The notes beneath the pieces are model-generated. The model was not told the origin of the DNA and ran no database searches. It was given only the letters and a program-made list of their open reading frames with translations. Below, in pieces: positions 1-39,350 of a stretch of 64,000 bases of DNA (within the stretch, counting starts at the first letter, position 1; every line of letters begins with the position of its first letter). This DNA is from Escherichia phage F13. The stretch is taken from the sequence record OP745617. One strand, written 5' to 3'. The translations under genes were made by a program, and so were the position numbers.

Positions 1-102
1 GGACTCTCCAAAGAAGAGTTCAGCAGCATTGCCGAAGCAAAGGCATGGCTAAAGGCATTCTACAAGGCCAATCCTAAATTTTATCCAACTAAGGGTGCAT
101 AA
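1..102 (+). CDS. 3' end of upstream gene (partial, hypothetical protein)
   Basis: Open frame from window edge (…GLSKEEFSSIAEAKAWLKAFYKANPKFYPTKGA*) ending at TAA 100-102, overlapping ATG 102 of the next gene. Confidence 0.4.
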   Translation, partial: GLSKEEFSSIAEAKAWLKAFYKANPKFYPTKGA

Positions 103-320
103 TGACCGATAAACAATACGCAGTCGGGCAACGTGACATCGAGCAACTCGACGAGGGCGGTTATTATACACGCCACATCTATGCTATGACTCAAGAAGGA
201 CTTTACAGCAAGTCGGACATCGCCGCTGAACTGGCCCATCGCGACTTGCAAATTGATCTTCTCAAGATAGAAGTGCAGAACTTACGAAACACCCTGTTAA
301 ACACCTGGAGCTTAAAATGA
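102..320 (+). CDS. hypothetical protein (72 aa)
   Basis: ATG start overlapping upstream stop; stop overlaps next gene start (ATGA at 317-320), typical phage translational coupling. Confidence 0.5.
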   Translation: MTDKQYAVGQRDIEQLDEGGYYTRHIYAMTQEGLYSKSDIAAELAHRDLQIDLLKIEVQNLRNTLLNTWSLK

Positions 321-742
321 TACAGCGTTACGACCTGACATATGATGTGGCATCGGACGATTTCGCCGTCACTCCCGTTCCAGAAAGTCATGAAGGACGT
401 TTTGTTGCATATGAGGACTATGAATCACTGCTCAAGCTTAATGAGTCGCTAACAAAAGAGATTGAGCAATACCACGAGCGCATCAAAGTCGCTGAAGATG
501 TTATCAAGCTTTTTAGCGAGGCTGTTGAGAAATACAAGGAGCGCAACGTACCGATTAAGGAGGAAGCGTGGACCGTGTGGCTTGGTGGTGAGAATCCTGC
601 ACCTGGCGAGATTGTTGAATACAAGCTGCGCAATGGAGGTGATAAAGTATTGTCGAGACTTTCTGACCATCTTCACTGGGGTCATATAGGAGCACTCAAA
701 GGCAGCGACATCATTGCTTATCGGGTCGTTAAGGAGGGGTGA
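317..742 (+). CDS. hypothetical protein (141 aa)
   Basis: ORF coupled to neighbours by ATGA overlaps at both ends. Confidence 0.55.
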   Translation: MIQRYDLTYDVASDDFAVTPVPESHEGRFVAYEDYESLLKLNESLTKEIEQYHERIKVAEDVIKLFSEAVEKYKERNVPIKEEAWTVWLGGENPAPGEIVEYKLRNGGDKVLSRLSDHLHWGHIGALKGSDIIAYRVVKEG

Positions 743-1275
743 TGGGTAACGATGCAGGATGGGGCAAGCCGCGATACTCAAAACTTGCCCACTACTTTGA
801 CGACGGCGAGCAAATCAGCTTGTGCGGTAAATTCAACAAAGGCAATACAGAGTTGACCGATGCTCAAGAAATGGAATCAAGTCTGACAATTGGTGATTGC
901 TCTAAGTGCAGAAAGGCATTATATGAGTTATTGACTCTAAGGGGATTGAAAGCGGCAAAATCAAGGGATGAATGGGTCATCAACGTCTGTGAAGGGAATC
1001 CAGAATTGATGGATGAATTGCTGAAAACAGATGCCGTTAATGCCATTTTCAAAAGGCATTATAAAACTTGTATGCGTTACAAGATGAATGATGATATTAT
1101 TTTTATGGTATTATCTTATTCAAGGAGCACAATGGACGTCAAAAAGCTTCGACAATATCGCCACAAGGTCATGTGTGAATTGCGCCGTTTAGGAGTTATT
1201 GTGGATAATAATGTCATTAAAACGGAGTTAAAGAAGCGTGATAAAAGGAATGGTGACTGGAAGGTCAGCGGATAA
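739..1275 (+). CDS. hypothetical protein (178 aa), Cys pairs suggest possible zinc binding
   Basis: ORF with CGKF…CSKC spacing; last gene before the AT-rich element at 1.54-1.99 kb. Confidence 0.5.
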   Translation: MMGNDAGWGKPRYSKLAHYFDDGEQISLCGKFNKGNTELTDAQEMESSLTIGDCSKCRKALYELLTLRGLKAAKSRDEWVINVCEGNPELMDELLKTDAVNAIFKRHYKTCMRYKMNDDIIFMVLSYSRSTMDVKKLRQYRHKVMCELRRLGVIVDNNVIKTELKKRDKRNGDWKVSG

Positions 1276-1539
1276 ATAAACACTGTTTACGTGTTTTGAA
1301 GAATGGAATGTGTGCAATGGGTCGCTTTATGCGGCCTTTTGTCGTTTGGGTCATGTTTTGCTATGGAATAATTATGAGGTTGTGTTTTATTTATTAATTG
1401 TGCGGAAATATTTAGAAATATATATAAACAGGATTGTTAATATTTTAATAGTTTATGGCTATTGGTCCGTGGTGTTTGTTAGATTCTATCTATGGATTGG
1501 ATTTTCTTGGGTCGTGAAACGTGGTTTTGAACACATTTG

Positions 1540-1990
1540 ATACGCCTAAAATACGGTTAAAAATTAAGCGTATCATGGCTGCAGGCCGCGCCGTTCCTGG
1601 ATTCCTCTTTTCCAAATTGGTACACCCTTACGTCATGATACGTCATGGTTTTTTATCCGTATCAGTGTACAACCCTTGCCGCGCCTGGCTTGTACATTAA
1701 TCTTACGGATGATACGGATAAAACTGAGCATCGTTATATATAGAATTCGAAAAATTAATTAACTCCATTTTAAAAACATTTATATTAATTTTTTTCATAT
1801 CCTCATACTTATGTTAATTTATATATTTAACGTATCATCCGTAAGATATAAGTAAAAACAAAGACTTGCGGCAATACGGATGATACGTCATGATACGCTT
1901 CAACCAGCCAGCAGCGGCTAAGTCGTTGATTTGCATAACAAGCGGCAAAAGGGATGGATTTCTTTTATACGTATCAAACAGTACACCACG
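1540..1990. repeat. Composite element A: AT-rich core (about 1735-1830) flanked by inverted repeats aatcttacggatgatacgg (1699-1718) and ccgtatcatccgtaagat (1831-1847), plus extra GGATGATACG-type copies (1629-1665, 1873-1898)
   Basis: Read directly; homologous to element B at 18055-18345 (shared aatcttacggatgatacgga and tatata-gaattc-aaa-ttaatt core). Confidence 0.8.
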
Positions 1991-2062
1991 CACCACGGTC
2001 CGTTATCCATTCAGCAATATGATTTGTGTACGTTTATAGCCATAATGAACATCAATCTGCAC

Positions 2063-2091
2063 TTGAATATAATGTCCATCCATTGTATAAT
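2063..2091 (+). promoter_or_regulatory. sigma70-like promoter with extended -10 (TTGAAT-N17-TGTATAAT) upstream of the TerS-like gene
   Basis: Hexamers and spacing read from sequence; the transcribed leader would contain two AATTTGCACTATG motifs. Confidence 0.4.
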
Positions 2092-2111
2092 TCACACTAT
2101 TAATTTGCACT

Positions 2112-2600
2112 ATGGGATTTTGCACTATGAGTCAAGATTATGTAGCGATGCCTGAAGACTTTGAAGACCCGCGATTCGCAGAGCACAATCAGGCTTTATT
2201 CGATGAGTTCATTGACCTTGTTATTCAGGGTCATGACATGCGCGCAGCTTTTGCACTAGTATTTGGAATGGAAGTTGCAACGGATAACTACACTGGCCAG
2301 CGAATCCTTTGCACGCAACGCAATCCATACTACAAGATGCGCTTCAAAAAGCGTATGGAAGAGATGCCACTCAAGGATTTGTGGAGCGTAAAAGGTGCAA
2401 TTCACAATTTGGTTAAGCTTGTTCGTGATCCAGAAGTCGCGGCGTCAGCCAAGCTTAATGCTATTCGTGAACTGAATATCATCTACGGCATCACGATGAT
2501 TGATGAAAACGGCAATAGTAAAATGGGCCGTTCCATGGACGATTTCTACAAGGATTTTGGAGAGGCGGCCAAAGAAGGTGAGCAATTCTCCCGCCACTAG
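2112..2600 (+). CDS. terminase small subunit-like DNA-binding protein (possible start at 2127)
   Basis: About 160 aa; NQALFDEFIDLVIQGHDMRAAFALVFGM and C-terminal AKLNAIRELNIIYGI resemble TerS (Terminase_2-type) segments; recognised from memory only. Confidence 0.4.
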   Translation: MGFCTMSQDYVAMPEDFEDPRFAEHNQALFDEFIDLVIQGHDMRAAFALVFGMEVATDNYTGQRILCTQRNPYYKMRFKKRMEEMPLKDLWSVKGAIHNLVKLVRDPEVAASAKLNAIRELNIIYGITMIDENGNSKMGRSMDDFYKDFGEAAKEGEQFSRH

Positions 2601-2619
2601 CCAATTTGCACTATAAAAC

Positions 2620-2654
2620 GGCCCTAGAACACATTTTCTCCAATTCTAGGGCCA
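2620..2654. terminator. Hairpin between convergent genes: perfect 10-bp stem GGCCCTAGAA/TTCTAGGGCC, 15-nt loop
   Basis: Inverted repeat read from sequence; no strong T-run, so terminator function is inferred from position. Confidence 0.4.
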
Positions 2655-2714
2655 TCGGTAATACGACGGGGAAGGTTACAAACATAAACGCGTTAGAAAG
2701 TGTATTATTATAAG

Positions 2715-2978
2715 TCATCTTTTAGTCACCTTACGTAACAATTTACGACCTTCAACCGTCCAATCGAACGACTCCACCAGCAGATTCGCACTATAACCTA
2801 AGACGATGCGTCCCTTCTCGTTATCGACCCGCCAACAAGTCTCGAATAGCATTCGATTTGCACTATTAACTATTGCCGCAACTCGCGTAGGATAAGCGCA
2901 ATTTGAACTATGGTCGTAAAGGGATAAGGTGCGACCACTTCCGATGGACAACGTAGCGATGAGAATGAGCGTATTCAT
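2715..2978 (-). CDS. doubtful ORF (87 aa) overlapping three copies of the AATTTGCACTAT motif
   Basis: Has a possible GGTGG RBS, but the motif copies inside suggest the region may be regulatory rather than coding. Confidence 0.2.
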   Translation of the reverse strand: MNTLILIATLSIGSGRTLSLYDHSSNCAYPTRVAAIVNSANRMLFETCWRVDNEKGRIVLGYSANLLVESFDWTVEGRKLLRKVTKR

Positions 2979-3028
2979 AAGCCACCAATTTGCACTATGA
3001 AAAGCGACCCCGAAGGGCCGCCATTCGA

Positions 3029-3655
3029 TTAGATAATCTGGAAGGTATAGGATTTGTTGCCGAACTCAAAGTTCAAGCGCCCAGCTTCCTTAAGCTTCAT
3101 GCGGAAGCGAATGTGCTTGCTATCCGGCAAGCCCAGCACGGCGAACGCTACGCGGACCGATTTGAACTCGCCTACACCCTCGACCATAACGCCGTTACGG
3201 GTGAGACGCTTTTGCGCCACTTCCTTATTATCCCAACTTTTTGCAATACCTTCGCTATTCGAACGGCGATGGGAAGGAGTTCCATTTTGCACTACGCAAT
3301 TTGCACTATCGTTTAGACCGCTCTTAACGAAGGCTTCATACTCTTCGTCGGTCATCGCGTCGAGTTCTTCCTGGGTCGGCTCGGCCTTTTTAACGACCGC
3401 ACGCGCCTTATGCGTTTTTACATCGCTGGACACTTCCTCGCGCGACTTCGCTTCGGGGATGGGCGATTCGTTGGACGGCTCATCGAGCGCGTTTAAGGAC
3501 TCGATTAACGCGATTACGCGAGTCTCGGCGGTACGGCGGTCCGCAAATTTCTTAATCGGCTTCGAACCGGAATTTGCATTATAAAATGCAACGAGGTCGG
3601 CGGTCTTAGTTGCGATAACGTCGCCGCTAGTCGAGAAACGATTTAAGCTAACCAT
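3029..3655 (-). CDS. hypothetical protein (208 aa)
   Basis: AGGAG RBS upstream of ATG at 3655; contains two tandem motif copies on the opposite strand and the TTTGCATT-N4-AATGCAAA palindrome near its 5' end. Confidence 0.6.
   Translation of the reverse strand: MVSLNRFSTSGDVIATKTADLVAFYNANSGSKPIKKFADRRTAETRVIALIESLNALDEPSNESPIPEAKSREEVSSDVKTHKARAVVKKAEPTQEELDAMTDEEYEAFVKSGLNDSANCVVQNGTPSHRRSNSEGIAKSWDNKEVAQKRLTRNGVMVEGVGEFKSVRVAFAVLGLPDSKHIRFRMKLKEAGRLNFEFGNKSYTFQII
3573..3592. promoter_or_regulatory. Palindromic operator-like site TTTGCATT-ATAA-AATGCAAA
   Basis: Perfect 8-bp inverted arms with 4-bp spacer; a dyad version of the AATTTGCA motif. Confidence 0.35.
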
Positions 3656-3735
3656 AATGAACTCCTATTTGTTAGGGCGCTAGGCGCGAAAGAATTTTAT
3701 TAAAGCGCCGCGCACGACGCTCTAAAAATCCTCTC

Positions 3736-4020
3736 TTACGCTTCGACGAGGGAGAAGGTCTCAAATTCTTCTTCGCCCATAACGAGTAAGATGTTACCGA
3801 TTTCGACCGCTTCGAAGAAGTATCCGTTAACGTTTACTTCGAAGGCTTCGCGGTCCGATTCCGGTAACGCCGCGTAAAGTTTAAAAGCCTCGGCGACCGT
3901 TACCCCACCCGCCTCGATGGTCTGGTCTACGTTCGCGGCGTAGACTTCGGATAAAATTTGTTTTACGCCGTAGTTCTCGACGATAGCGTTACGGATGGAA
4001 GAAACGTTAAGAATAGCCAT
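3736..4020 (-). CDS. small early protein, paralog family member A (94 aa)
   Basis: AGGAG RBS; preceded on the minus strand by the conserved promoter/hairpin cassette; MAILNVSSIR…EVYAANVD…VNGYFFEAVEIG aligns with the 4958-5248 product. Confidence 0.6.
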   Translation of the reverse strand: MAILNVSSIRNAIVENYGVKQILSEVYAANVDQTIEAGGVTVAEAFKLYAALPESDREAFEVNVNGYFFEAVEIGNILLVMGEEEFETFSLVEA

Positions 4021-4088
4021 TTTAAACTCCTAGTTGGGAGAGGCGTTAACGACCTATTCGCTAACTCATCCCGTCCCGATATGAGTAC

Positions 4089-4116
4089 ATTATAATATAG
4101 TGTAGAAAAAAGTAAA
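4089..4116 (-). promoter_or_regulatory. sigma70-like promoter (TTTACT-N16-TATAAT) of the conserved early cassette, minus strand
   Basis: Reverse complement of 4021-4128 is nearly identical to the plus-strand cassettes at 4548-4655 and 4851-4957. Confidence 0.5.
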
Positions 4117-4160
4117 GCACTTTTTCGATAAAAATGCGATAAATTATTTTATCTTTTTTC

Positions 4161-4188
4161 TTTACTTCTTCGTACACTCGCGTATACT
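4161..4188 (+). promoter_or_regulatory. sigma70-like promoter (TTTACT-N16-TATACT), diverged copy of the early cassette, divergent to the minus promoter
   Basis: CTTTACTTCTTCGTACACT shared with the other cassettes; followed by a GGGC…GCCC hairpin and a GGGAG RBS. Confidence 0.45.
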
Positions 4189-4244
4189 TGTTTATATCGA
4201 GACGGGCGATGGCCCTTCCTTCTACTAGCATCGGGAGCTTTATT

Positions 4245-4547
4245 ATGACTACTTTAATCTCTTCCATCCTTACTTACGACGAAGACCGTTTAACCGTTCG
4301 CTCTCTTATCGCCGCCGTTAACGCCGAACTAGAATCTAGCGCCATTAAGGTCCGCGCGGTTGCCTTCGTCGGTCTTTCCTTCGACGATATCAAGTACGCC
4401 GAACGTAGCGCCATCCGCTTCGCGAAGACCGACGACGAAGCCGTTACCCTTATCGAGACGGTTACTCCGCGCGGCGAAACGTTAATTATCGTCGAGTATA
4501 TCGACGTAGAAGGCGATAAGGCTTATAAATATTTTATCGCAAAATAA
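4245..4547 (+). CDS. small early protein, paralog family member B (100 aa)
   Basis: ATG at 4245 with GGGAG RBS (the track's 4188 start is a TTG inside the -10 element); N-terminus MTTLISSI resembles the paralogs; 3' two-thirds lies in the tandem duplication. Confidence 0.6.
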   Translation: MTTLISSILTYDEDRLTVRSLIAAVNAELESSAIKVRAVAFVGLSFDDIKYAERSAIRFAKTDDEAVTLIETVTPRGETLIIVEYIDVEGDKAYKYFIAK

Positions 4548-4558
4548 CGAAAAAGTGC

Positions 4559-4587
4559 TTTACTTCTTAGTACACTAAGACTATAAT
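4559..4587 (+). promoter_or_regulatory. sigma70-like promoter TTTACT-N17-TATAAT (cassette copy 1)
   Basis: Near-consensus -10 and 17-bp spacer; followed by the 5' UTR hairpin at 4610-4630 and AGGAG at 4644-4648. Confidence 0.55.
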
Positions 4588-4609
4588 GTTTTATATCGAG
4601 AGGGGATGA

Positions 4610-4630
4610 GGTAGCGAATAGGTCGCTACC
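4610..4630 (+). ncRNA. Conserved 5' UTR stem-loop (GGTAGCGA-ATAGG-TCGCTACC)
   Basis: Perfect 8-bp stem; the minus-strand copy (GTTAGCGA/TCGTTAAC) keeps pairing through a compensatory U-A and a G-U wobble. Confidence 0.5.
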
Positions 4631-4655
4631 CTCCCGACTAACTAGGAGAATATTA

Positions 4656-4850
4656 CGCGCGGTTGCCTTCGTCGGTCTTTCCTTCGACGATATCAAGTAC
4701 GCCGAACGTAGCGCCATCCGCTTCGCGAAGACCGACGACGAAGCCGTTACCCTTATCGAGACGGTTACTCCGCGCGGCGAAACGTTAATTATCGTCGAGT
4801 ATATCGACGTAGAAGGCGATAAGGCTTATAAATATTTTATCGCAAAATAA
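4656..4850 (+). pseudogene. Duplicated 3' fragment of gene 4245-4547 lacking a start codon
   Basis: Second repeat unit encodes RAVAFVGLSF…KYFIAK in frame, but the position matching the ATG of gene 4958 reads ACG (4655-4657). Confidence 0.45.
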
Positions 4851-4861
4851 CGAAAAAGTGC

Positions 4862-4890
4862 TTTACTTCTTAGTACACTAAGACTATAAT
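4862..4890 (+). promoter_or_regulatory. sigma70-like promoter TTTACT-N17-TATAAT (cassette copy 2, drives gene 4958-5248)
   Basis: Identical to copy 1 (offset 303 bp); hairpin at 4913-4933, AGGAG at 4947-4951. Confidence 0.55.
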
Positions 4891-4957
4891 GTTTTATATC
4901 GAGAGGGGATGAGGTAGCGAATAGGTCGCTACCCTCCCGACTAACTAGGAGAATATT

Positions 4958-5248
4958 ATGATCACTTTATCCGCTATCCGTGCCGCTCGCGTCGAAACTT
5001 CCGAAAACTCTAACGTATTTGGCGAAACCTTAGAGAGCGTTTATCTCTCTAACGTTGACGCGATTATCGAGTCTATTTATGAGCCGATCAACTTCCTCGA
5101 CCTTTACAAGTATCGCGATGAGGACATCGTGTCCTACCGCGTAACGATTAACGGCTTCGTTTATACGATTACCGAAATCGGCGGCGAATATCTCGCTGTA
5201 CCGCAACTCGGCGGCGAAGTAACTTACTTTAAAATCGTAAGCCTTTAA
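4958..5248 (+). CDS. small early protein, paralog family member C (96 aa)
   Basis: ATG with AGGAG RBS; clear similarity to the 3736-4020 product (IR-A-VE, VY-NVD-IE, NG-xxE-EIG). Confidence 0.6.
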   Translation: MITLSAIRAARVETSENSNVFGETLESVYLSNVDAIIESIYEPINFLDLYKYRDEDIVSYRVTINGFVYTITEIGGEYLAVPQLGGEVTYFKIVSL

Positions 5249-7261: not shown

Positions 7262-7360
7262 TTATGCCGCAGCAGCGTGAATTATTGCGTAAACAATTCC
7301 TAACAGGGCGACAACGCAAACAGTGCCCCAAAATGCAAAGCGTCGTGCCTCTTTATCCAT
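7262..7360 (-). CDS. possible small membrane peptide (32 aa, MDKEARRFAFWGTVCVVALLGIVYAIIHAAAA)
   Basis: Single hydrophobic helix; GGTGG-like RBS; sits between two coupled genes. Confidence 0.25.
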   Translation of the reverse strand: MDKEARRFAFWGTVCVVALLGIVYAIIHAAAA

Positions 7361-7640: not shown

Positions 7641-7721
7641 AATACACCTCACTTGTTAACGTATAATGAGTATAACTTAATAGCGCATAAAGTAAAGGCG
7701 CTTTTCAGCGCCTTGAGTGAA

Positions 7722-10031
7722 TTATTTTGCTGATTTCAGCGCGGCTATCTCTGCCTTGAGTTCACCTATCTGATCCATGAGTGCAAGAATAGCCTCGTGG
7801 TGCAATGCCGCTGCCACTCCGTAAGTGTCGACTGATTTGACATCCTTGACCACGGTCCCATCAGCCAGTTCCATATCACCTGAAACAGAAACGGCTTCTG
7901 GGAAATCAACCTCAACATCTTGAGCCACGAATCCAAAACCTACTTTCGCGCCGTCAGTTTTCAATCGCCATGACACGCCATTAATCCTTTTCATCTTGGT
8001 CAATGGGTCTTGAATCTTGACAATCTCATCCTTGATTCTGACGTCTGAAGAAGTACCCCAACCGCCAGCGCAAACAGCATTACCTGCTTGCAGGAATTGG
8101 AAATACTTGTTGGTGCCTACACCGCCAGCAGTAGTGGTCATTATGGTCACATCGCCATTACGCTCAGAATATACCCGACCATACGTTGCTGTGTTGGCAC
8201 TGTTCTTAAAATCGATGAACGATTGGTTGTTGGTGTTTCCAATGAACGTCGCTTGACCGCCGCGAGTTATCAACTGGCCTTTTGCATCAACGTTCCCAGA
8301 GCTGGTGATCAAGTTATTTGGCACAAGCAAGTTGCCGTTGTCGACAAAATCGAATGCCTGGCTGGCGGCAGTCGTCAAATTGGTAACGGTCAATCGCATG
8401 TAATAAGCGCCACCGATAACAGCGCGAATGCGCATGCGACCTTCAGCCTCAACAGCAGTCCCCACTCGATACTCCGACATGACGCTGCCGCCGTCAGCGG
8501 TCGTGCCTGGACCTGGCATTGCCGTATCGCCGTTTATAACAGACCATTGCGTATTCGCCGCTGTGAATCCACCGGATGCACGAATCACCCAAACGCCTGA
8601 AAAGTTGCGCGGCAATACTTCATCTGTTGCAAGGTTGTTACGACCGTAAGCTGGGCTTGAGTTAGAAGCTCTTAGCGCAACGCTTCCCAAAGAGTTCGCA
8701 CCAGAACTTAAAAGCGAAACACCTCTTACATATCGCGGAATGGTGAATCCTTCTCCATTGATGAATGCGCCGCCAGCACCTGCGACAACCGTTCCTGATG
8801 CTGGTTCACTTGCAGGGCCGGACCCGTGGAAGTTGATGTTGCCAGTGATGTTTGGCAGGAAGGATTCCATTATCATTCCGTCATTTGACGAGTTGCCGCC
8901 ATCGCCACGGGCAAAAAGTGCACGAACACTTCCTGTCTGAACGCCGTTACGGTCTGGAACACGGAATGTTGTTGTTCCGTTGCCTAAAGAATACTTTCCG
9001 CGCTTCAGCGGGTCAGCCAACCAATCTGCATCAGCAATAGGCGTAAGCATTTGCGCATAAGCCCAAAGCTCAGGCCAGTCTGCACGGTTAAGCAATTGTC
9101 CGTCGGCAACAACTTCATACGACTGAATATAGGCGCGACTGTCGCGCAGGTGAAAGTCACCAACGCCATAGTTCATTACGCCGTTCATGCTTGGGCCAAC
9201 GGTGCCAGTATTTACTAAGTTCTCAACCCAACGCTTCGTCGCGGCATCATAATCATTGACGGGGTCGCCAGCCAGTGGTGTTGAGCCTTGTGGACGAATA
9301 TTCAACCATGCTTGCGCATTGTCTGCTGATCCTGTGCCGCCCATGGAAGTTGGAACGATGCTCTGATCAGCAACAGGGCCAAATCCAAAGGCATCTTTCA
9401 TTCCCTGAATAGTCGTTTGACCTGTGCCGCCGTTTGCAATTGGAATTGTGCTTTGTGAACTATAAATTTGCGCCCAAGGCGACCATGAAGATGTTTCAGC
9501 ATTGTACCTTCTTTGGTACAAGTTATTTGAGTTGAATGTGGTGTATCTTTGAATGCAACTTTCCAAAGATATGGCAGTCTGCAGGACTTCCAATATCCCA
9601 GCTTCCAAGGCTACTGGATAGTTGAGGGATGTCTGCGCAGCAGCATTTGAATATTGGTAATATTGCCCAAACCAAGTTCCAGTCAAAGAGTTCAGATTTA
9701 TCCCCGACGGCAAAAGTCCAAAATTCCTGACAGTATTGGTCAAAGATGCGGCAGTTGTTCGAATGGAAAGCATGTCGCCTGCCGCCCATGCGCGCGCTGC
9801 AGTTCCTTCCTGTGCACGCTGCACAGTCAGGACGTTCCCAACCACGGCTGTTACAGTGATGATTTCAAATTGGAGGCCTGTTGCAGCGTCGACGATTGTC
9901 GCCACTACACGCTCGTTTGCACCCAAGGTCGGAAAGCCCGACCCTGAGCGGATTGTGATTGTGGTGTCTGAAGTCGTCGCTGGCTGAGCGAGCGCGACCT
10001 CAAAGTTGTTTTTGAATATTAGCCTTGGCAT
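7722..10031 (-). CDS. tail fibre/tail spike protein with C-terminal intramolecular chaperone (S74-type) domain
   Basis: 769 aa, Gly/Thr/Ser/Asn-rich; C-terminus has SDVRIKDEI…DGAKVGFGFVAQDVEVDFPEAV, typical of the auto-cleaving chaperone domain of phage fibres; GAGGA RBS. Confidence 0.7.
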   Translation of the reverse strand: MPRLIFKNNFEVALAQPATTSDTTITIRSGSGFPTLGANERVVATIVDAATGLQFEIITVTAVVGNVLTVQRAQEGTAARAWAAGDMLSIRTTAASLTNTVRNFGLLPSGINLNSLTGTWFGQYYQYSNAAAQTSLNYPVALEAGILEVLQTAISLESCIQRYTTFNSNNLYQRRYNAETSSWSPWAQIYSSQSTIPIANGGTGQTTIQGMKDAFGFGPVADQSIVPTSMGGTGSADNAQAWLNIRPQGSTPLAGDPVNDYDAATKRWVENLVNTGTVGPSMNGVMNYGVGDFHLRDSRAYIQSYEVVADGQLLNRADWPELWAYAQMLTPIADADWLADPLKRGKYSLGNGTTTFRVPDRNGVQTGSVRALFARGDGGNSSNDGMIMESFLPNITGNINFHGSGPASEPASGTVVAGAGGAFINGEGFTIPRYVRGVSLLSSGANSLGSVALRASNSSPAYGRNNLATDEVLPRNFSGVWVIRASGGFTAANTQWSVINGDTAMPGPGTTADGGSVMSEYRVGTAVEAEGRMRIRAVIGGAYYMRLTVTNLTTAASQAFDFVDNGNLLVPNNLITSSGNVDAKGQLITRGGQATFIGNTNNQSFIDFKNSANTATYGRVYSERNGDVTIMTTTAGGVGTNKYFQFLQAGNAVCAGGWGTSSDVRIKDEIVKIQDPLTKMKRINGVSWRLKTDGAKVGFGFVAQDVEVDFPEAVSVSGDMELADGTVVKDVKSVDTYGVAAALHHEAILALMDQIGELKAEIAALKSAK

Positions 10032-10069
10032 TTTACGGTCCTCGTTTTGTCGACAACCGTATTATAACC

Positions 10070-10411
10070 TTAATTTCTTTTGAGAGGAATATGACGGTGG
10101 CTGCCATTATTTGGTTTAATAATGAGCATAAAAACGATTAGAAAGATGATGGCTGATATACTTAATTCAATCAGCGCGGCTTGAGATATAGATTGATCTT
10201 CGTGATACTGCTTTTGCATTTCTGCTTTCTTCTGAGCGCAAACTTCAGGTGATATGTAATCGCCTTTTGAGTTGCCATAATAAATTTCGCCGTTTTCAGA
10301 AATCAGTCTGCCGCAAATATCCGTTTCAGCCTTTGCACTTGACATCATAATAACGGTGCCGATAATAGCGGCGATAGTCCAGATTAACAGTTGTGATAAA
10401 GTGTTGTTCAT
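10070..10411 (-). CDS. secreted/membrane-anchored protein (N-terminal signal peptide, C-terminal TM helix)
   Basis: ATG 10411 with AGAGG RBS; MNNTLSQLLIWTIAAIIGTVIMMSSAKA signal-like, C-terminal ALIELSISAIIFLIVFMLII helix. Confidence 0.5.
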   Translation of the reverse strand: MNNTLSQLLIWTIAAIIGTVIMMSSAKAETDICGRLISENGEIYYGNSKGDYISPEVCAQKKAEMQKQYHEDQSISQAALIELSISAIIFLIVFMLIIKPNNGSHRHIPLKRN

Positions 10412-10428
10412 GATAACCTCTTTAAATT

Positions 10429-10449
10429 CCCTTCCCATATCGGGAAGGG
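10429..10449 (-). other. GC-rich hairpin (CCCTTCCC-atatc-GGGAAGGG) in the 5' leader of gene 10070-10411
   Basis: Perfect 8-bp stem about 17 nt upstream of the start codon on the minus strand. Confidence 0.4.
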
Positions 10450-10607
10450 TGATAATTATTTTACGCGAAAGAATAGGCGCGTGCCACACAGCGAGTCCCA
10501 ACGGCCTTCACCATCCCATACCGACCCAACGCCAGCGGTGATGACACCAGCAGAATTGGCGGCATTGGCCCAGGCGAGTCGTTTCAGCTTCCAACTACAC
10601 CAACGAT

Positions 10608-10841
10608 TCACAGTTCATCTCCAGATTGCAGAACAAGTCCCGCATAGAGGATTGCCAAGGCCAAAGGTGCACCACCACCAGCCTCTCTATTCTCTTTGAT
10701 TTGAAGAGTATCCTTAAGGAATTGCAGCTGAACGTTGAATTCACTTTCAATTCCAAGCACTCTAGCCAATTCTTTTACAGAATCTGCATATGCCTTGTCT
10801 AGCACTTCTTTTGGTACTGTTAAGGTTAATTCATTTGCCAT
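10608..10841 (-). CDS. hypothetical protein (77 aa from ATG 10841)
   Basis: Start chosen at MANELTL…; part of the minus-strand operon. Confidence 0.45.
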   Translation of the reverse strand: MANELTLTVPKEVLDKAYADSVKELARVLGIESEFNVQLQFLKDTLQIKENREAGGGAPLALAILYAGLVLQSGDEL

Positions 10842-11052
10842 TTTCTTTCCACTCCACAAATGTGTTGCCGCTTGTTTCTCTGTTTAGCAGGTATCTGCCG
10901 CGCATCCCATGAAGGCTGAACTCAACCGTCGATGGATTAGATTTTGAAAGCCATATAGGCTGCCCGTCGAATGGACCGCCTACGCATGTATATTTCGCTT
11001 TTGGCTCACTCCTTTTGGGCCGTTTTGCCCGCTCTTTGATTGATAGTCTCAT
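10831..11052 (-). CDS. hypothetical protein (73 aa, basic N-terminus)
   Basis: AAGGTG RBS; overlaps neighbours by a few nt. Confidence 0.4.
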   Translation of the reverse strand: MRLSIKERAKRPKRSEPKAKYTCVGGPFDGQPIWLSKSNPSTVEFSLHGMRGRYLLNRETSGNTFVEWKENGK

Positions 11053-11267
11053 CAGTCTTCACCTTGAGATTCCAGACAAGTAAGGACAAGCCAAGTCATC
11101 GGAAGAATCAAAACCAGAGAAATGAGGGACCAGATAGACCAGCACAGGATGACAGACTTGAATGTGTGAACGTCGCCAAACGCAGCAGTAAAACAGAATC
11201 CCATTACAAATGCAATAGCGGTGGAATGGTTGTCTATGGCTTTGATGGCACGGTCGATGAGTTTCAT
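11052..11267 (-). CDS. small membrane protein (71 aa, two predicted TM helices)
   Basis: GGAGG RBS; hydrophobic segments AIAFVMGFCFTAAF and ILCWSIWSLISLVLILPMTWLVL; first gene of the minus operon. Confidence 0.45.
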   Translation of the reverse strand: MKLIDRAIKAIDNHSTAIAFVMGFCFTAAFGDVHTFKSVILCWSIWSLISLVLILPMTWLVLTCLESQGED

Positions 11268-11349
11268 ATTACCTCCGGTTTTGAGTTAATATGATTATAA
11301 CGCAGAGTCTCAGAAAGGCAAACTTTTTGTGAATTTTAATCAAAAAAAA

Positions 11350-11370
11350 TGGCCAGAAAAAAATCTGGCC
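11350..11370. other. Hairpin GGCCAGA-aaaaaaa-TCTGGCC in the divergent promoter region
   Basis: Perfect 7-bp stem with A-rich loop between the minus operon and terL. Confidence 0.35.
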
Positions 11371-34816: not shown

Positions 34817-37555
34817 ATGCAAAAGTTTGACACAAACCTGTTGCAAAACCTTAAGTGGATGCAGAACAATGCGCCAAACATTACATCTTTGGTGCAAAAG
34901 AAAAGTGACTGGTATGAAAGATACCAAGATCAGTTTTGGACTGACTGGTACAATAACATTTTTAACATTGACACTTGTGATGCAATGGGCATTTATATTT
35001 GGTGCGACATTCTTTGCATACCAAGAGACTTTGTGGACTTAAGCAATTATGAGCACAACTGGGCGTTTGGACCGACGCGCGACAACTTTGAAGGTGCGGA
35101 CAACATCGGCGGCAACTTCTTTGGTGCTGGCGGGAAGGTTGTAAAGAATATCGAAGAAGCGCGCATACTTCTTAAGCTTCGTTATCTGACGCTTACAAGT
35201 GATGGCCGCATCGAAAGTATCAATCGCATGCTTAAGTGGATTTTCAACCGTGGAGAGGCTTGGGATTACTCTTCATCACGCTACGCATATGTGACCGACA
35301 ATACTCAAGGCGCAGTGTCTTCGTCTGAATCAACCAATGGCTCATTCCTTCTGTACGACTGGCAAGGGTCAACTGAGATTCAGCACGATTATAAGCAGAT
35401 ACTTTTAAGCCATGGCAACAACGCCGGACTGACCATCAGCGGAGTATCAGGCACCGTGTCACGGATGGCGCATCCAGATTGGTACTCATGGGGGAATGGC
35501 TCCGGCACAGGTCTTGTCGGCGGCGACACCAGACAGTATGGCGGCCCTGATTACTATGGACAGTTGTGTGGTGATTACCCAGGCGAGGCCATAGAGAATT
35601 TTGCCAACGCAGTAAGGGTAGTCAAGACTGCTTCAAGCGGTGAGCCTGTGTATTCTTTGGCAGATAATCCAAGCGCCCAATCCATTGCGCTTCCTTCGCA
35701 GGCTGGCGTTAACGTTTGTTATAGCTTCTACATAAAGGTGCTTTCTGAAAATGTCGCTTCTGTTTCGGTTACAGAGAATAGTGATGCATCTAGTAATGGA
35801 AAGTTGTTTGACCCAGTCACTGGGCAGTTCAACTTGGACCCGTATTTGAGCTATTTCATCACAGGCAAATTCGATGGAGTAAGAAGGGAATCAAGCCGTG
35901 GTGGCATCAAAGCAATCGGCGGCGATTGGTATCGAATCTGGATTGTAGAGCAGACGGCAACCGCTGCGTCTGGAGTAAGTACCAGCTTTTCAATAGAGTT
36001 GAAGGCGACTGCCGCTGGATCAACTCAAACTCGTGAATTGCCTGAAGGGTCTGATGCACTTCTTTTTGGATACTCGATTTGCGTCTGCGACCCTGTTCAG
36101 AATCCAAATGGACCTGAGCCTTATTTTTATGGAACGCAAAACCCTCCTTCTGACGGAACAGCAATACTGTCTGTAACGGCGGGAACGCTCAACAACATCT
36201 CCTGTGCAAACGGACCGCTGACGACAAGAAACGGTGTGGTTGGCGAGTCATTCATGCAACCTGGCTCATCACTTGCATACTCTGGCTCAATCGGCGGCTA
36301 CCCGTACCCAGGGAACGCCACATTGATTGCAGAGACTGACGGCATCAGACGCTCATGGAACGTTAGCAGGCTTGATGGAGTACCGCCGCCGCCGACCGCT
36401 GACTATTACATGGAATACGTCATCGGACCTTATTTCGCCAACAACCTGTCAGACAACTTTAAGACGCTAGTTGGCGACAGGGATGAAGGATTCTTGCCAG
36501 CAAATGCCGGAATACGCTGGCAGCGTTACCAAGAAGTCGCAGACTTATCTGATATTGATTTGACTGTCAGCAACATAACAGACACGCGAGTAGGATTTGA
36601 AACGGAAGGTGTTGCTTGGATTAACACTGACGGTATCATCAGAGTTGGCGGCATTAACGAGTGGCCGCTGAACAACTTCAACGGTGTGATACGCCAGCTT
36701 GAATCTTTGAAAGGTGTAAACCAGGTCATCGACGGCGCGCTTGTCAACGACTATTCAATCTCAAAAGCATCAAGAGATGACTTTGGTCGTGAAATCCCAC
36801 GTGCCGCAATCACTAACTACTGGAGATACACACAGCCCAATGACGGCACATCTTTTGGCAATATCATTGAGGATGGCGCAAACACGGTCACAGCGACGCC
36901 AATCAGCGGTGTACCCAACCAGTTCCCATCATTCAAGCTTTCCGCTACAATAGGGACTGTGCCAGCGTCCGGTTATGCACGCGCTGTACTTGCTACTAAA
37001 TACACTGGCACCCTGACTGGTCCTTTATCATTCATTGCGGTAGTCAAAAACAACACGGTTAACGGTCAAAAACTTTTTGTAACTGTACCGGATGGGATGG
37101 GTGGCTATATCCCTAAATTCTACAACATAGGCGCAGGTGATTTGCAACGTATCGAAATTGACCTTGCCGCTGAGATTGTTGAAGGCGCTACCTGGGATGG
37201 ATCAACAGGCGGCATCAGCATCGGTTTGATATCAGGGAAAGACTTGCCGACCGAAGTTGGTACGACTCTTGAACTTGATATTTTAAGCTTGATGCTTGTG
37301 TCTGGTAATACGATGAATGCGCTTGCAATTTCAACAAGCGAAGATTTCGCAAAGAAGACTGCGACTTCTATATACATCAAAAACCCAGGATCACTTGCCA
37401 CTGGAGTTCAATTGATTGCTTCTAATGGTGATGTTGTAGCAACAGTAAACTTTCCGAGAAGTGCTGCTGGTGGTTATGTTTCAAGCATGAACATAACTGA
37501 CTTAACTGGTGATTGGGCATCAACCCTTTTATCAAAAATTAAATACATCGTGTAG
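34817..37555 (+). CDS. large baseplate-associated/tail fibre protein (912 aa)
   Basis: Size, Gly/Ser/Thr-rich composition and position upstream of the distal tail fibre. Confidence 0.5.
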   Translation: MQKFDTNLLQNLKWMQNNAPNITSLVQKKSDWYERYQDQFWTDWYNNIFNIDTCDAMGIYIWCDILCIPRDFVDLSNYEHNWAFGPTRDNFEGADNIGGNFFGAGGKVVKNIEEARILLKLRYLTLTSDGRIESINRMLKWIFNRGEAWDYSSSRYAYVTDNTQGAVSSSESTNGSFLLYDWQGSTEIQHDYKQILLSHGNNAGLTISGVSGTVSRMAHPDWYSWGNGSGTGLVGGDTRQYGGPDYYGQLCGDYPGEAIENFANAVRVVKTASSGEPVYSLADNPSAQSIALPSQAGVNVCYSFYIKVLSENVASVSVTENSDASSNGKLFDPVTGQFNLDPYLSYFITGKFDGVRRESSRGGIKAIGGDWYRIWIVEQTATAASGVSTSFSIELKATAAGSTQTRELPEGSDALLFGYSICVCDPVQNPNGPEPYFYGTQNPPSDGTAILSVTAGTLNNISCANGPLTTRNGVVGESFMQPGSSLAYSGSIGGYPYPGNATLIAETDGIRRSWNVSRLDGVPPPPTADYYMEYVIGPYFANNLSDNFKTLVGDRDEGFLPANAGIRWQRYQEVADLSDIDLTVSNITDTRVGFETEGVAWINTDGIIRVGGINEWPLNNFNGVIRQLESLKGVNQVIDGALVNDYSISKASRDDFGREIPRAAITNYWRYTQPNDGTSFGNIIEDGANTVTATPISGVPNQFPSFKLSATIGTVPASGYARAVLATKYTGTLTGPLSFIAVVKNNTVNGQKLFVTVPDGMGGYIPKFYNIGAGDLQRIEIDLAAEIVEGATWDGSTGGISIGLISGKDLPTEVGTTLELDILSLMLVSGNTMNALAISTSEDFAKKTATSIYIKNPGSLATGVQLIASNGDVVATVNFPRSAAGGYVSSMNITDLTGDWASTLLSKIKYIV

Positions 37556-37565
37556 AGGAACGGCA

Positions 37566-39350
37566 ATGCCAACACTTATTAACAGACCTTTCGCGCAAAG
37601 CGGTGATGTATCCGTGGTGCCGGATGCAAGTCCAAGCGGTTATGTGAACTTCCAGCGCGGCTACACCCCTGACTATGCACTTGCGCTGGAAGCCGGAAAC
37701 GTCGCCGCGAAAGCAGTTGAACGTGAGTCGATGAACTGGTTGCTGAATCTGATCACCGACAACCTTATGTTCATCCAGGACCACGGCGCTCAACAGTATT
37801 TCTCGTCTGACTTGAAGCCAGATGGATACCCGAAAAATGCCATCGTTGTCAGCAACTCTGGCACCCCTTCAGCGCCTGAATGGCGCATTTTCCAGAGTGT
37901 GGTAGACGGCAACACCAGCGCAGTCCCAGCTAACGGCGAAACGGAATCTTGGCAGGAATTGACGCTGCCTAGCGAAGCGAGAAAATATATTCCTATGCCT
38001 GCTGGCGGCGATGCGCAAAACCCGTATTTTGTTCGCGGACTGATTTCAAACTTTGTGGACTTTGATAATATCACGACTTCCACAACTATTGTCATTCAAT
38101 CTGATGCCGTTGCCGCTCTCTGCTCTAACATCCCGAACGCGGTTGGTGCGACGAAGGTTGCAGGTCGTCTCCAGGTTTGCGCTTGGCAGGTTGATGCGCA
38201 GACTTTCGCCCTGCAACAATACACGTCAATGAACGGATATGTTTTCACCCGCTCTTATACTTCTGGTGCTTGGAGTGCTTGGATTCAAAATGCAACTGTT
38301 CAAGACGTGCAAATCGGCACGCCGAATCTTGCATCAGGTAAAGGCGCACAAGATATAATCCTTACCGTTCCGGCAGGTTATGCATGGCCGCCGTCAGCAG
38401 GTAGTCGCCTGACAATTGTCAATGATGTAACGACTACCGGACCTGTTACCGTGACCATTGGTGCAAACAAAGTTGCAGTCCTTGGATTCGACGGCGGCGA
38501 GCTGCCAGCAGGGTCCATCGTCGGTCTTCTTCCTTTTACTATTATTTATGACGGCACCGTTTGGCGTCTTCTTCAAGCATTCGGCGCGGCGCAAATCGGT
38601 GTCGATGCTAGTGAGCCGCAACAGTTTGTTACAAAGCGCCAACTCGATGCTTTGGCTGCGAAATTGATAACTATGGGTGATGTATTCGAAGTCGGTGAGA
38701 CTCGATTCTTGACTAATGGCACTAACCCAAATACTAAACTGGGCGCTTATGGACAGGTTTGGACCAGATTGCCTGACAACATGGTCATCAGGACATCTGG
38801 CACAGCAAGAAACGGCCTTGCCACTGGCGGCGCGGACTCTGTTACTCTTACCGCCGCCATGCTTCCTCTGCACAATCACAGCGTGAACATAACTACGCGA
38901 CAGAGCGGTCCATGGTCCAATACCACTGGAGGCGCAGGCAACCATAACCACACAGGCGATACCAGTCAAAACGGCGCTCACGTGCACGGAATGGATGCTG
39001 CTGGTAATCATCATCACGACAGTGGCTGGGGTGAGGCTTATGCAGACCAGGCTAGATACGGGGTGTATGATGGCACGCACAATAACCTTGGAAGTGCAAG
39101 GTCTGATTATGACAACTACAAATACAACACCTCGACTAACGGTAGCCACGTCCACAATATTCAATCTTCTGGGTCACACACCCATGGGTTGAATATAAAT
39201 TTCGCTGGCAATCACAGCCATAGCTATACCCTTCCCGCTCACACTCACGATGTGGTCGGTAACACTGGCAATGCAGGGCAGTCCGTCCCAACGGCTGTTT
39301 CAACTCTGCCGCGATATGTCGTCTTGAACGGCTGGTACAGAAGCGCATAA
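37566..39350 (+). CDS. tail fibre protein with histidine-rich HxH repeat region
   Basis: GAGGAA RBS, ATG 37566; C-terminal HNHSVN…NHNHTGD…AHVHGMDAAGNHHHD…SHVHNIQSSGSHTHGLNINFAGNHSHSYTLPAHTHDV. Confidence 0.65.
   Translation: MPTLINRPFAQSGDVSVVPDASPSGYVNFQRGYTPDYALALEAGNVAAKAVERESMNWLLNLITDNLMFIQDHGAQQYFSSDLKPDGYPKNAIVVSNSGTPSAPEWRIFQSVVDGNTSAVPANGETESWQELTLPSEARKYIPMPAGGDAQNPYFVRGLISNFVDFDNITTSTTIVIQSDAVAALCSNIPNAVGATKVAGRLQVCAWQVDAQTFALQQYTSMNGYVFTRSYTSGAWSAWIQNATVQDVQIGTPNLASGKGAQDIILTVPAGYAWPPSAGSRLTIVNDVTTTGPVTVTIGANKVAVLGFDGGELPAGSIVGLLPFTIIYDGTVWRLLQAFGAAQIGVDASEPQQFVTKRQLDALAAKLITMGDVFEVGETRFLTNGTNPNTKLGAYGQVWTRLPDNMVIRTSGTARNGLATGGADSVTLTAAMLPLHNHSVNITTRQSGPWSNTTGGAGNHNHTGDTSQNGAHVHGMDAAGNHHHDSGWGEAYADQARYGVYDGTHNNLGSARSDYDNYKYNTSTNGSHVHNIQSSGSHTHGLNINFAGNHSHSYTLPAHTHDVVGNTGNAGQSVPTAVSTLPRYVVLNGWYRSA

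Follow-up and report, generated by a model that had tools for sequence, protein, structure and literature searches.

The closest described counterpart of the fibre considered here comes from the work of Humolli et al. 2025 (PLoS Biol, PMC11990801), which reported for Wifcevirus a dual-RBD fibre, dependence on the O16 O-antigen and the horizontal transfer of RBDs. The T shape of the fibre was based on AlphaFold-Multimer models of Bas99, Bas32 and Bas87. The fibre of ManiWeber (Bas99), a phage that requires the O16 O-antigen, is named 'Gp114' (GenBank Bas99_0109, 777 aa) and is encoded outside the tail module. A second system is LtfA, the O-antigen-binding lateral tail fibre of the T5-like phages DT57C and DT571/2. 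According to Golomidova 2016 (PMC4728585), whether LtfA is specific for O22-like or O87 depends on its divergent C-terminal region, which recombination can swap; a host switch by ltfA recombination has been documented in the literature. Necel 2020 detected fibre orthologues by mass spectrometry in CsCl-purified preparations of vB_Eco4M-7 and ECML-117.

The DNA analysed here (the window, 64,000 nt) is that of Escherichia phage vB_EcoM_SP13 of the genus Wifcevirus, the fibre gene matching OP352608.1 at 100%. The literature on SP13 itself amounts to a taxonomy listing, and the sequence record gives the host as 'Escherichia sp.' only. With a probability of roughly 0.85, the gene at 7722..10031 is the variable lateral tail fibre of SP13, an orthologue of the 'T-shaped' dual-RBD fibre of ManiWeber that works by the mechanism set out below. 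Such a fibre at such a locus was described for the genus in 2025 (Humolli et al.), and the finding is correct and ordinary; it adds little conceptually, the two-fibre arrangement, the dual-RBD architecture and horizontal RBD exchange all having been known since that year.

The fibre gene and its locus

The features of the locus, in window positions, are:

7722..10031, minus strand: variable tail fibre CDS, complete, ATG-started, 769 aa (SP13_015, UYE90811.1), from the ORF list and the 100% match to OP352608.1
7722-7724, minus strand: fibre stop codon, from the ORF list
10040..10043, minus strand: Shine-Dalgarno GAGG, 8 nt upstream of the ATG (10029-10031), read from the sequence
7695..7714, minus strand: terminator-like hairpin AAGGCGCT-GAAA-AGCGCCTT, starting 8 nt past the fibre stop, from a consensus scan and the sequence, a pattern match only
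10070-10411, minus strand: 113-aa product with an N-terminal signal/TM and a C-terminal TM segment by hydropathy, 38 nt upstream of the fibre
11052-11267, minus strand: 71-aa ORF with a membrane-like segment, by hydropathy only
7262-7360, minus strand: 32-aa ORF with a membrane-like segment, by hydropathy only
35033-37555, plus strand: tail-module structural gene SP13_050
37566..39350, plus strand: conserved tail-module fibre SP13_051, 594 aa, the companion and the virion's other fibre (phrog_5717 tail protein)

The original prediction had placed a 769-aa reading frame on the minus strand, and its ATG start was confirmed. A PHROG search matched the product over its full length to phrog_6921 'tail fiber protein' (E = 1e-205). 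Synteny of the locus extends to 14 other genomes: the gene lies on the minus strand downstream of the conserved 113-aa membrane protein, within a block of leftward genes that diverges from terL. In the WFC record a terminator is annotated at the position equivalent to the hairpin, and GenBank already records an S74 domain for the fibres of WFC and vB_Eco4M-7. The gene had also been said to lie about 25 kb from the main tail fibre genes on the opposite strand and next to genes for membrane proteins, which was borne out: the distance to the start of SP13_050 is 25.0 kb and that to the start of SP13_051 27.5 kb, both genes being on the plus strand, and three nearby products have membrane-like segments as judged by hydropathy. 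For the 113-aa product the orthologue in vB_Eco4M-7 carries the same annotation, from Phobius; searches of Pfam, PHROG and NCBIfam gave no assignment for these membrane-protein neighbours.

Domain architecture and conservation

Conservation was compared across 15 Wifcevirus genomes (SP13 and 14 relatives), and the fibre was divided as follows, all on the minus strand:

9732..10031: N-terminal anchor (aa 1-100), presumed baseplate attachment, from conservation and GP4 homology
9333..9731: shaft, a moderately variable region (aa 101-233), 52-74% identity to orthologues
8934..9332: conserved base of RBD1 (aa 234-366), probably collar/gp12-like, from conservation and the collar motif
8631..8933: hypervariable distal part of RBD1 (aa 367-467), from low identity and loss of DNA homology
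8529..8630: conserved RBD1-RBD2 junction (aa 468-501; ...GVWVIRASGGF.AANT.WSVINGD...), a DNA homology island
8049..8528: RBD2 (aa 502-661), beta-rich distal domain whose folding is presumably chaperone-assisted, 4-54% identity to orthologues
7725..8048: intramolecular chaperone / Peptidase_S74 (aa 662-769, 11.6 kDa), with a coiled-coil helix at the end
8031..8048: predicted catalytic dyad Ser662 (8046-8048) and Lys667 (8031-8033), from motif position

The anchor is 90-97% identical in the 14 Wifcevirus orthologues, that of AV128 included (about 95% across the 15 genomes), and is homologous to aa 4-99 of the tail fibre of the Ralstonia podovirus GP4 (E = 3e-7; 8JOV, solved as 18 chains and assigned to Ralstonia phage GP4 via tblastn). 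In the shaft AF2 placed a small beta domain at aa 145-190, the rest being modelled at low confidence. The base of RBD1 is 92-98% identical to that of 13 orthologues (about 90% across the 15 genomes) and 82-92% identical to hundreds of fibres on phage contigs of ~108, ~60 and ~76 kb, T5-like phages among them, and its coding DNA is 82% identical to that of Tequintavirus KookSpook; it is a probable recombination handle. It contains the tail-collar motif TTFRVPDRNG, on which the Pfam Collar match of SP13 is sub-threshold (E = 0.055, 13.9 bits vs 24); 17 of 75 homologues do attain the threshold (best 2e-6). The gp12-like (tail-collar, SSF88874) character of RBD1 is probable through homology to orthologues that have been given this domain.

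Further along, mean pairwise identity falls to 0.18-0.31 over aa 391-450 and peaks at 0.72 over aa 481-510, with several junction columns nearly invariant; the junction DNA island (~8487-8630) is 74.6-87.5% identical in 13 of the 14 relatives. In the AF2 monomer RBD2 forms an extended beta meander whose pLDDT reaches 94, mean values being 63 for the full-length model and 83 for a focused model of aa 496-769. Monomer AF2 models gave no match to a gp12-like fold for RBD1 or a T5-like fold for RBD2, and a sequence profile searched against the PDB matched neither gp12 nor pb1. The entry 8HQZ could not serve to model the RBDs and was set aside, since its LtfA structure is confined to the N-terminus.

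The fibre of Bas99 occupies the same locus and runs, like that of SP13, from anchor through shaft, RBD1, junction and RBD2 to the S74 chaperone. Its anchor is 97% and its aa 234-366 region 96% identical to those of SP13, whereas the distal allele differs, with identities of 36% (aa 391-490), 26% (aa 491-580), 10% (aa 581-660) and 31% (chaperone). LtfA of DT57C is homologous to aa 234-767 of SP13 (E = 1e-130; profile 6e-186), a match that starts at SP13 aa 234 and chain aa 539 (8HQZ chain d) and takes in RBD1, junction, RBD2 and chaperone; LtfA of DT571/2 shows about 56% identity to the SP13 fibre (tblastn). The N-terminus of LtfA is unrelated, being of the T5 type and fixed to a siphovirus tail by the LtfC ring, whereas the SP13 anchor is of the GP4 type and belongs to a myovirus baseplate. 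LtfA moreover carries a second fibre, LtfB, no equivalent of which was seen for SP13. On sequence grounds the SP13 fibre is a relative of the DT57C-type LtfA by module and not a member, because T5-type attachment via an LtfC collar was not found.

Closest of all to the distal 403 aa are the distal fibres of SU10/phiEco32-like podoviruses (Gordonclarkvirinae; vB_EcoP_EcoN5, AnnaHegner Gp10), which have the same RBD1-RBD2-chaperone module at 50-59% identity. These fibres are ~700 aa long, rely for attachment on a second protein, a proximal fibre of 1075 aa, and have their genes within the structural module, whereas the SP13 fibre brings an anchor of its own and its gene lies apart from the tail module. 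With other S74 systems (K1F endosialidase, the L-shaped fibre pb1 of T5, GA-1 gp12 and the eukaryotic MyRF ICA) only the chaperone is common: the upstream domains differ, SP13 has no sialidase domain and no pb1-like similarity of RBD2 was recovered.

Intragenic exchange of the distal block

Comparison of the locus among the 14 relatives revealed a distal mosaic with breakpoints. Distal identity is 4-54% across the 15 genomes. In 13 of the 14 relatives the DNA ceases to be homologous between window positions ~8841 and ~8938 (aa ~366-397), with 8932 the commonest breakpoint, and homology returns in the last 10-45 codons of the gene. In AV128, which has the same anchor and an unrelated distal fibre without an S74 domain, the break is earlier, at 9609 (aa ~141). 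Homology is unbroken through both flanks and breaks solely inside the fibre gene. What is exchanged is a distal segment of ~1.1 kb inside the gene, and the position of the gene and the flanking genes are fixed. The notion of a swappable host-range cassette thus holds for the part that carries specificity, which is exchanged among relatives, but not for the locus as a unit.

The distal module of SP13 is a new allele: its closest match over aa 367-769 among 5.8 billion proteins is at most 59% identical, and the nearest module is that in the fibre of an SU10-like podovirus. No recent donor was identified. When 5,426 complete E. coli genomes were searched by megablast with window 7722-8932, no match emerged, and among phage records DNA was shared with one T5-like phage only, over the conserved handle.

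The chaperone domain

The motif SDVRIKDEI, put forward in the original prediction as a chaperone signature near the C-terminus, starts at aa 662, 108 aa before the C-terminus. The Pfam search confirmed it, with Peptidase_S74 (PF13884) matched at aa 662-714 far beyond chance (E = 5e-10, 39.9 bits, gathering cut-off 22); the same family matches 69 of 75 homologues. The domain has the fold of solved chaperone/ICA domains, PDB and fold matches to 3gw6 being confined to this part. Together with the PHROG assignment and the LtfA homology, the S74 match upholds the proposal of a receptor-binding fibre with an S74 chaperone outside the tail module, as does the presence of orthologues in purified preparations of vB_Eco4M-7 and ECML-117.

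The S-x4-K spacing at the start of the domain is one that we take to equal that of Ser911/Lys916 in endoNF and Ser1264/Lys1269 in T5 pb1, dyad residues reportedly described by Schulz in 2010 and Garcia-Doval in 2015. Although the chaperones of the orthologues fall into at least three sequence types, all 14 orthologues that have the domain retain Ser662 and Lys667, and both residues are invariant in 50 of 50 homologues. The motif predicts a cut at Ser661/Ser662 and a mature fibre of 69.7 kDa.

Alternative interpretations

Published proteomics leave a conflicting picture on whether the chaperone departs the virion. Re-analysis of the ECML-117 data placed tryptic peptides at 18 of 22 in the mature part against 0 of 7 in the chaperone (Fisher P = 2e-4), with 0 of 109 PSMs from the latter. 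The chaperone of vB_Eco4M-7 is of the same sequence type, yet its CsCl-purified preparation yielded all 6 predicted chaperone tryptic peptides and 500 of 2011 mapped PSMs (2013 are reported for the protein), so that 14% of the length accounts for 25% of the PSMs, and because of this release from the particle is not uniformly supported by the orthologues. The cleavage-spanning peptide, too short to inform, was detected in neither state in the published data. It could be that S74 is not released at all and that the virion fibre retains its chaperone, whether the chain goes uncut or the cut piece remains attached, to form a cap or a portion of the distal tip; transient chaperone caps are described for fibres of Alteromonas phages (PMC10579305). 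The invariance of the Ser/Lys dyad argues for selected catalysis, however, and the vB_Eco4M-7 preparation was not of pure virions, as it held non-structural proteins such as helicase, while the fibre was the top-scoring protein of the dataset, above the capsid proteins, which suggests that free fibre or precursor had co-purified. With the ECML-117 result, this makes general retention quite unlikely. A narrower version, that in at least some Wifcevirus particles the chaperone remains bound or uncleaved, capping RBD2 and aiding or regulating receptor engagement, is kept in view because the vB_Eco4M-7 chaperone peptides are equally or more abundant, and is rather unlikely; if true, the SP13 distal allele, at most 59% identical to any other, would represent a new glycan specificity in capped form.

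The GenBank name of the gene, 'endo-N-acetylneuraminidase', would imply an endosialidase tailspike that degrades the K1-type polysialic acid capsule. The name is unsupported because no sialidase domain was found: at E <= 0.1 Pfam returned S74 and a weak Collar only, with no endosialidase beta-propeller, N-terminal or tail-spike domain, and NCBIfam gave no match for the SP13 fibre. The 3gw6 match, restricted as it is to the chaperone, lends no support, the region upstream is homologous to the non-enzymatic fibres of LtfA, phiEco32 and SU10 type, and all relatives are annotated as tail fibre, so that an endosialidase is extremely improbable. Correcting the name removes a misleading implication of K1-capsule specificity. 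The membrane genes raise another reading, in which fibre and neighbours move together as a cassette for host range and superinfection exclusion. T5 encodes its receptor-blocking lipoprotein Llp beside the receptor-binding protein, and in SP13 a signal-peptide/TM protein lies immediately upstream of the fibre, with two small TM ORFs in the leftward block. Against this, all 14 relatives, AV128 included, share the flanking products (the 113-aa and 71-aa ones among them) at 96-100% identity whatever the fibre allele, DNA homology is lost solely within the fibre gene, the same membrane genes were not seen beside homologous fibres of unrelated phages and the position of the locus is fixed across the genus; joint movement is very improbable. 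A functional link between the membrane neighbours and fibre specificity was likewise rejected, as there is no co-variation and no family assignment. Judged by their conservation, these neighbours are backbone genes outside the swappable unit.

Proposed mechanism and its uses

On the preferred reading, three chains would trimerise and the S74 chaperone (aa 662-769) would nucleate folding of the beta-structured RBD2. The chaperone would then cut itself off at Ser661/Ser662 by means of Ser662 and Lys667, as motif and fold suggest and the ECML-117 spectra indirectly support. In the mature chain of ~70 kDa the genus-conserved anchor (aa 1-100) would dock the trimer on the baseplate, presumably at a site distinct from that of the tail-module fibre, followed by the shaft, the probably collar/gp12-like RBD1 (aa 234-467) and RBD2 (aa 502-661). 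Host range may be set by the two distal domains through binding to a surface glycan that varies, most likely O-antigen, as in the homologues; for SP13 itself O-antigen binding is inferred by analogy with Golomidova 2016 and Humolli 2025. Host range would evolve through homologous recombination within the gene, which replaces the ~1.1-kb distal block, with crossover points in the base of RBD1 (aa 234-366), in the RBD1-RBD2 junction (aa 468-501) and in the final 10-45 codons, and with sources that may include unrelated T5-like and SU10-like phages.

The same three conserved points mark where the distal module can be swapped with the anchor untouched, and the fibre gene offers a handle to predict or re-engineer the host range of Wifcevirus phages, which are under consideration for biocontrol of E. 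coli O157 and ESBL strains.

The tail-module fibre

The original prediction called the gene a second receptor-binding protein. That it is a receptor-binding fibre stands, but 'variable, probably primary host-range fibre' is a better name than 'second', because the tail-module fibre is invariant: SP13_051 is 95.5-98% identical in other Wifcevirus genomes, except in ECP_WGS_SA1 (90.2%). An anchor shared by both virion fibres was considered and rejected, since BLASTP gave E = 0.71 and no N-terminal similarity. Homologues of SP13_051 are found in 291 Pseudomonas phage records, and its orthologue vB_Eco4M-7_63 was detected by MS.

Identity and setting of the fibre gene

The original prediction, of a second receptor-binding protein with a self-cleaving chaperone domain, begins from a 769-aa minus-strand ORF that was found at exactly 7722-10031, with the SDVRIKDEI string starting at residue 662 of 769. 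A Pfam search returned Peptidase_S74 at residues 662-714 (39.9 bits against a gathering score of 22, E = 5e-10), and in PHROGs the whole length matched phrog_6921, 'tail fiber protein' (E = 1e-205). The ORF, motif and domain features are beyond chance. Over the surrounding 4.4 kb the sequence matches the Wifcevirus Escherichia phage vB_EcoM_SP13 (SP13; OP352608.1) at 100% identity, and the gene there is SP13_015; the orthologue is named 'tail fiber protein' in the records of relatives, and the PF13884 domain is already recorded for it in WFC and vB_Eco4M-7. The GenBank product name of SP13_015 is 'endo-N-acetylneuraminidase', but an endosialidase is rejected, as Pfam and NCBIfam gave no sialidase domain and the resemblance to 3gw6 is restricted to the chaperone.

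Features of the fibre gene and tail module
7722-10031, minus: fibre CDS, ATG start, 769 aa (ORF list)
8 nt 5' of the fibre ATG, minus: ribosome-binding site GAGG (read from sequence)
beginning 8 nt past the fibre stop, minus: GC-rich hairpin (consensus scan and sequence)
~24-40 kb, plus: tail module
35033-37555, plus: SP13_050, structural protein of unknown role, tail module
37566-39350, plus: SP13_051, tail fibre, tail module

The predicted distance of about 25 kb from tail genes on the opposite strand agrees with the starts of SP13_050 and SP13_051, 25.0 and 27.5 kb from the fibre gene. Its location outside the tail module was also borne out, since it is the last gene of a separate leftward, minus-strand block pointing away from the large terminase gene (terL, start 11447), an arrangement identical in 14/14 other Wifcevirus genomes inspected. 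The gene nevertheless occupies the left margin of the morphogenesis region, with terL 1.4 kb away, and lies ~1.75 kb within the boundary of a 3,899-bp terminal repeat.

Fibres of this kind have already been described. Humolli et al. 2025 (PMC11990801) reported two fibres in Wifcevirus phages, the first having a T4 gp37-like tip and a highly conserved gene in the tail locus, the second being 'T-shaped' with an N-terminal anchor, a Gp12-like receptor-binding domain (RBD1), a T5-like RBD2 and a C-terminal intramolecular chaperone. The RBDs of the T-shaped fibre vary widely and are phylogenetically scattered across myo-, sipho- and podoviruses, and the four isolates of that study required the O16 O-antigen. 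SP13_015 is an orthologue of this second fibre, and what is new is the allele.

Domain anatomy

Searches of sequence against PDB chains matched residues 4-99 to 8jov_1 (E = 3e-7), identified by tblastn at 100% identity as the tail fibre of the Ralstonia podovirus GP4, which makes up 18 chains of the entry, and the chaperone to S16 gp37 (6f45). Residues 234-767 matched LtfA of phage DT57C (8hqz_d, E = 1e-130), a match that indicates homology rather than a solved fold as 8HQZ resolves only the LtfA N-terminus. A profile built from 75 homologues strengthened the PDB matches and added the MyRF ICA and the GA-1 appendage chaperone. In RBD1 (aa 234-467) the Pfam tail-collar match of SP13 was sub-threshold (E = 0.055, on the motif TTFRVPDRNG); the Collar family was reached by 17/75 homologues (best 2e-6), and orthologues to which a Gp12-like/collar domain is assigned share 92-98% identity with SP13 over residues 234-366.

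The AF2 monomer model of the whole chain was mediocre (mean pLDDT 63) and that of residues 496-769 good (mean pLDDT 83). RBD2 (aa 502-661) was modelled as a single-layer beta meander resembling OspA and phage spike beta-helices, which is how one isolated strand set from a trimeric beta-structure would be expected to look in such a model; T5 pb1 and T4 gp12 were not among the fold matches to the monomer models. Ser662 and Lys667, the predicted catalytic dyad, are invariant in 50/50 homologues and retained in 14/14 chaperone-bearing orthologues, despite at least three chaperone sequence types. From the sequence, a cut at Ser661/Ser662 is predicted, which would release an 11.6-kDa chaperone from a 69.7-kDa fibre.

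Detection in phage preparations and possible processing

Mass spectrometry of CsCl-gradient preparations of vB_Eco4M-7 and ECML-117 was published by Necel et al. 2020 (PMC7048862), who found the orthologue vB_Eco4M-7_27 as the top-scoring protein (34 peptides, 80% coverage) and the orthologue PI34_gp24 with 18 peptides. The published peptides were mapped onto vB_Eco4M-7_27 (L006 3224-5563) and ECML-117 gp24 (L009 1645-4002). In ECML-117 the mature part yielded 18/22 of its theoretical tryptic peptides and the chaperone 0/7 (Fisher P = 2e-4), the final covered residue lying 7 residues ahead of the predicted cut, and these peptides support removal of the chaperone. In vB_Eco4M-7, however, the chaperone peptides were seen (6/6), with 500 of 2011 mapped PSMs (2013 for the protein in the published table). 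The chaperone thus takes 25% of fibre PSMs in one phage and none in the other, even though both chaperones belong to one sequence type; a junction peptide across the predicted cut was not found in the published data. The processed fibre expected in virions thus has support from the detection of the orthologues and, for loss of the chaperone, from ECML-117 but not from vB_Eco4M-7. Since the latter preparation also held non-structural proteins (PMC7048862), its peptides reflect either free precursor or chaperone in the preparation or chaperone kept on particles; retention on the fibre is a minority possibility. This disagreement is the one mildly surprising point.

The exchanged unit

The locus had been proposed to be a swappable host-range cassette beside membrane-protein genes. 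Alignment of 15 orthologues, each compared with SP13, revealed conserved and variable segments.

Identity of orthologues to SP13
residues 1-100: 90-97%
residues 101-233: 52-74%
residues 234-390: 86-93%, AV128 excepted
residues 391-490: 18-37%
residues 491-580: 14-54%
residues 581-660: 4-20%
chaperone: 62-65% with one phage group, 28-35% with the remainder

DNA homology ends at ~8841 to ~8938 (codons ~366-397) for 13/14 relatives, most often at 8932. A short homologous island follows within ~8487-8630, at the RBD1/RBD2 junction, and homology returns at 7729-7862, the last 2-45 codons of the gene. The 113-aa signal/TM protein encoded directly upstream, a 71-aa TM ORF, SP13_018 and SP13_013 keep 92-100% identity regardless of the fibre allele in nearly all relatives, both membrane proteins being 96-100% identical in all of them. 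As homology breaks inside the gene while the flanks are conserved, the exchanged unit is the distal ~1.1 kb; a mobile cassette of the fibre gene plus its membrane-protein neighbours is ruled out. Exchange of a probable host-range element is supported, but it is intragenic and the conserved neighbours have no part in it.

In AV128 the break comes earlier, at 9609 (roughly aa 140). Its fibre (L016 1928-3925, 665 aa) has the same anchor (92% identity over aa 1-100) and an unrelated distal part, so the Wifcevirus anchor accepts a different class of distal module. The S74 chaperone is absent from the AV128 fibre, whose PHROG matches are to other tail-fibre families (1591 and 10305), and this module presumably needs a separate assembly factor.

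Proposed mechanism and source of the SP13 allele

The original observation is confirmed, and its interpretation is supported with refinements. In the favoured reading, held at a probability of about 85%, SP13_015 forms a homotrimer in which the C-terminal chaperone would template the folding of RBD2 and then cleave itself off; the anchor would attach the fibre to the baseplate, the two distal domains would set host range by binding a variable surface glycan, probably the O-antigen, and specificity would evolve through recombination at conserved intragenic handles. In LtfA, homologous to SP13_015 over residues 234-767, O22-like versus O87 specificity was found by Golomidova et al. 2016 to be determined by the divergent C-terminal region, recombination within which switched host (PMC4728585).

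Hundreds of fibres on T5-like (~108 kb), ~60-kb and ~76-kb contigs share 82-92% identity with residues 234-366, and the DNA coding for these residues is 82% identical in Tequintavirus KookSpook, so the segment could plausibly serve as a handle for crossover between unrelated phages. For the distal 403 residues, protein searches gave no close relative; the best match (59%) was to an SU10-like podovirus fibre of 704 aa, encoded after a 1075-aa proximal fibre. As nothing similar to the distal block was found in complete E. coli genomes either, the SP13 specificity allele is unsampled.

The conserved fibre and the origin of the anchor

Along its whole length SP13_051 shares 95.5-98% identity with its counterparts in other Wifcevirus genomes (90.2% in ECP_WGS_SA1), in stark contrast to the variable SP13_015. 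Homologues of SP13_051 occur in 291 records of Pseudomonas phages, and its sequence is consistent with an ancestral fibre of a wider lineage, passed down vertically from the common ancestor with Pbunavirus-type phages. The phages that carry the anchor of the variable fibre are instead GP4-like, Bcep22-like and others of 40-65 kb, often with 2-4 copies per genome; the anchor was in none of the ~66-kb Pseudomonas phages among the matches listed, and it has no similarity to the SP13_051 N-terminus. This distribution and dissimilarity suggest that the Wifcevirus lineage acquired the variable fibre as a chimera, with a docking site that probably differs from that of the conserved fibre.

The anchor (9672-10031) occurs in 2-4 copies per genome in Bcep22-like Burkholderia and GP4-like Ralstonia phages (records H145-H155), and is labelled 'tail spike receptor binding N-terminal domain' in one Klebsiella phage. 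It looks like a generic adaptor, through which one docking site would serve several receptor-binding proteins.

Neighbouring genes and annotation

SP13_052 (39359-40003), directly after SP13_051, encodes a GH19-type endolysin (Glyco_hydro_19, phrog_181), and no holin or spanin was recognised near it. The small TM proteins of the leftward fibre block have no family assignment and might act in lysis or exclusion. Within the 180 bp that separate this block from the divergent terL there are a match to a sigma-70-like promoter (TTGCCT-16-TATAAT) and a terminator-like hairpin, strong and with a T-run (11294-11321 and 11351-11370, minus strand), and a terminator is annotated at the same place in WFC and WFH.

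Relative to the SP13 record the window is permuted, 1-4655 corresponding to record 66719-71374 and 4656-64000 to record 2587-61932. A perfect 303-bp tandem duplication at 4353-4958 (2.0 copies, 100% match) is single-copy in the GenBank SP13 record; it lies over SP13_007 within the direct terminal repeat, and may be either real or an artefact of joining during assembly. Annotation problems of the SP13 record fall at 10070-10501, 11052-11267, 7262-7360 and 10456-10611. A 71-aa TM ORF, a 32-aa TM ORF and a 51-aa ORF, annotated in BASEL and WFC genomes, are missing from it. The annotated start of SP13_016 (10070-10501) is probably 30 codons too early; from Met31 it is the 113-aa signal/TM protein present in all relatives. 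SP13_019 (~11166-11294, plus strand), which overlaps the oppositely oriented 71-aa ORF, is probably spurious.
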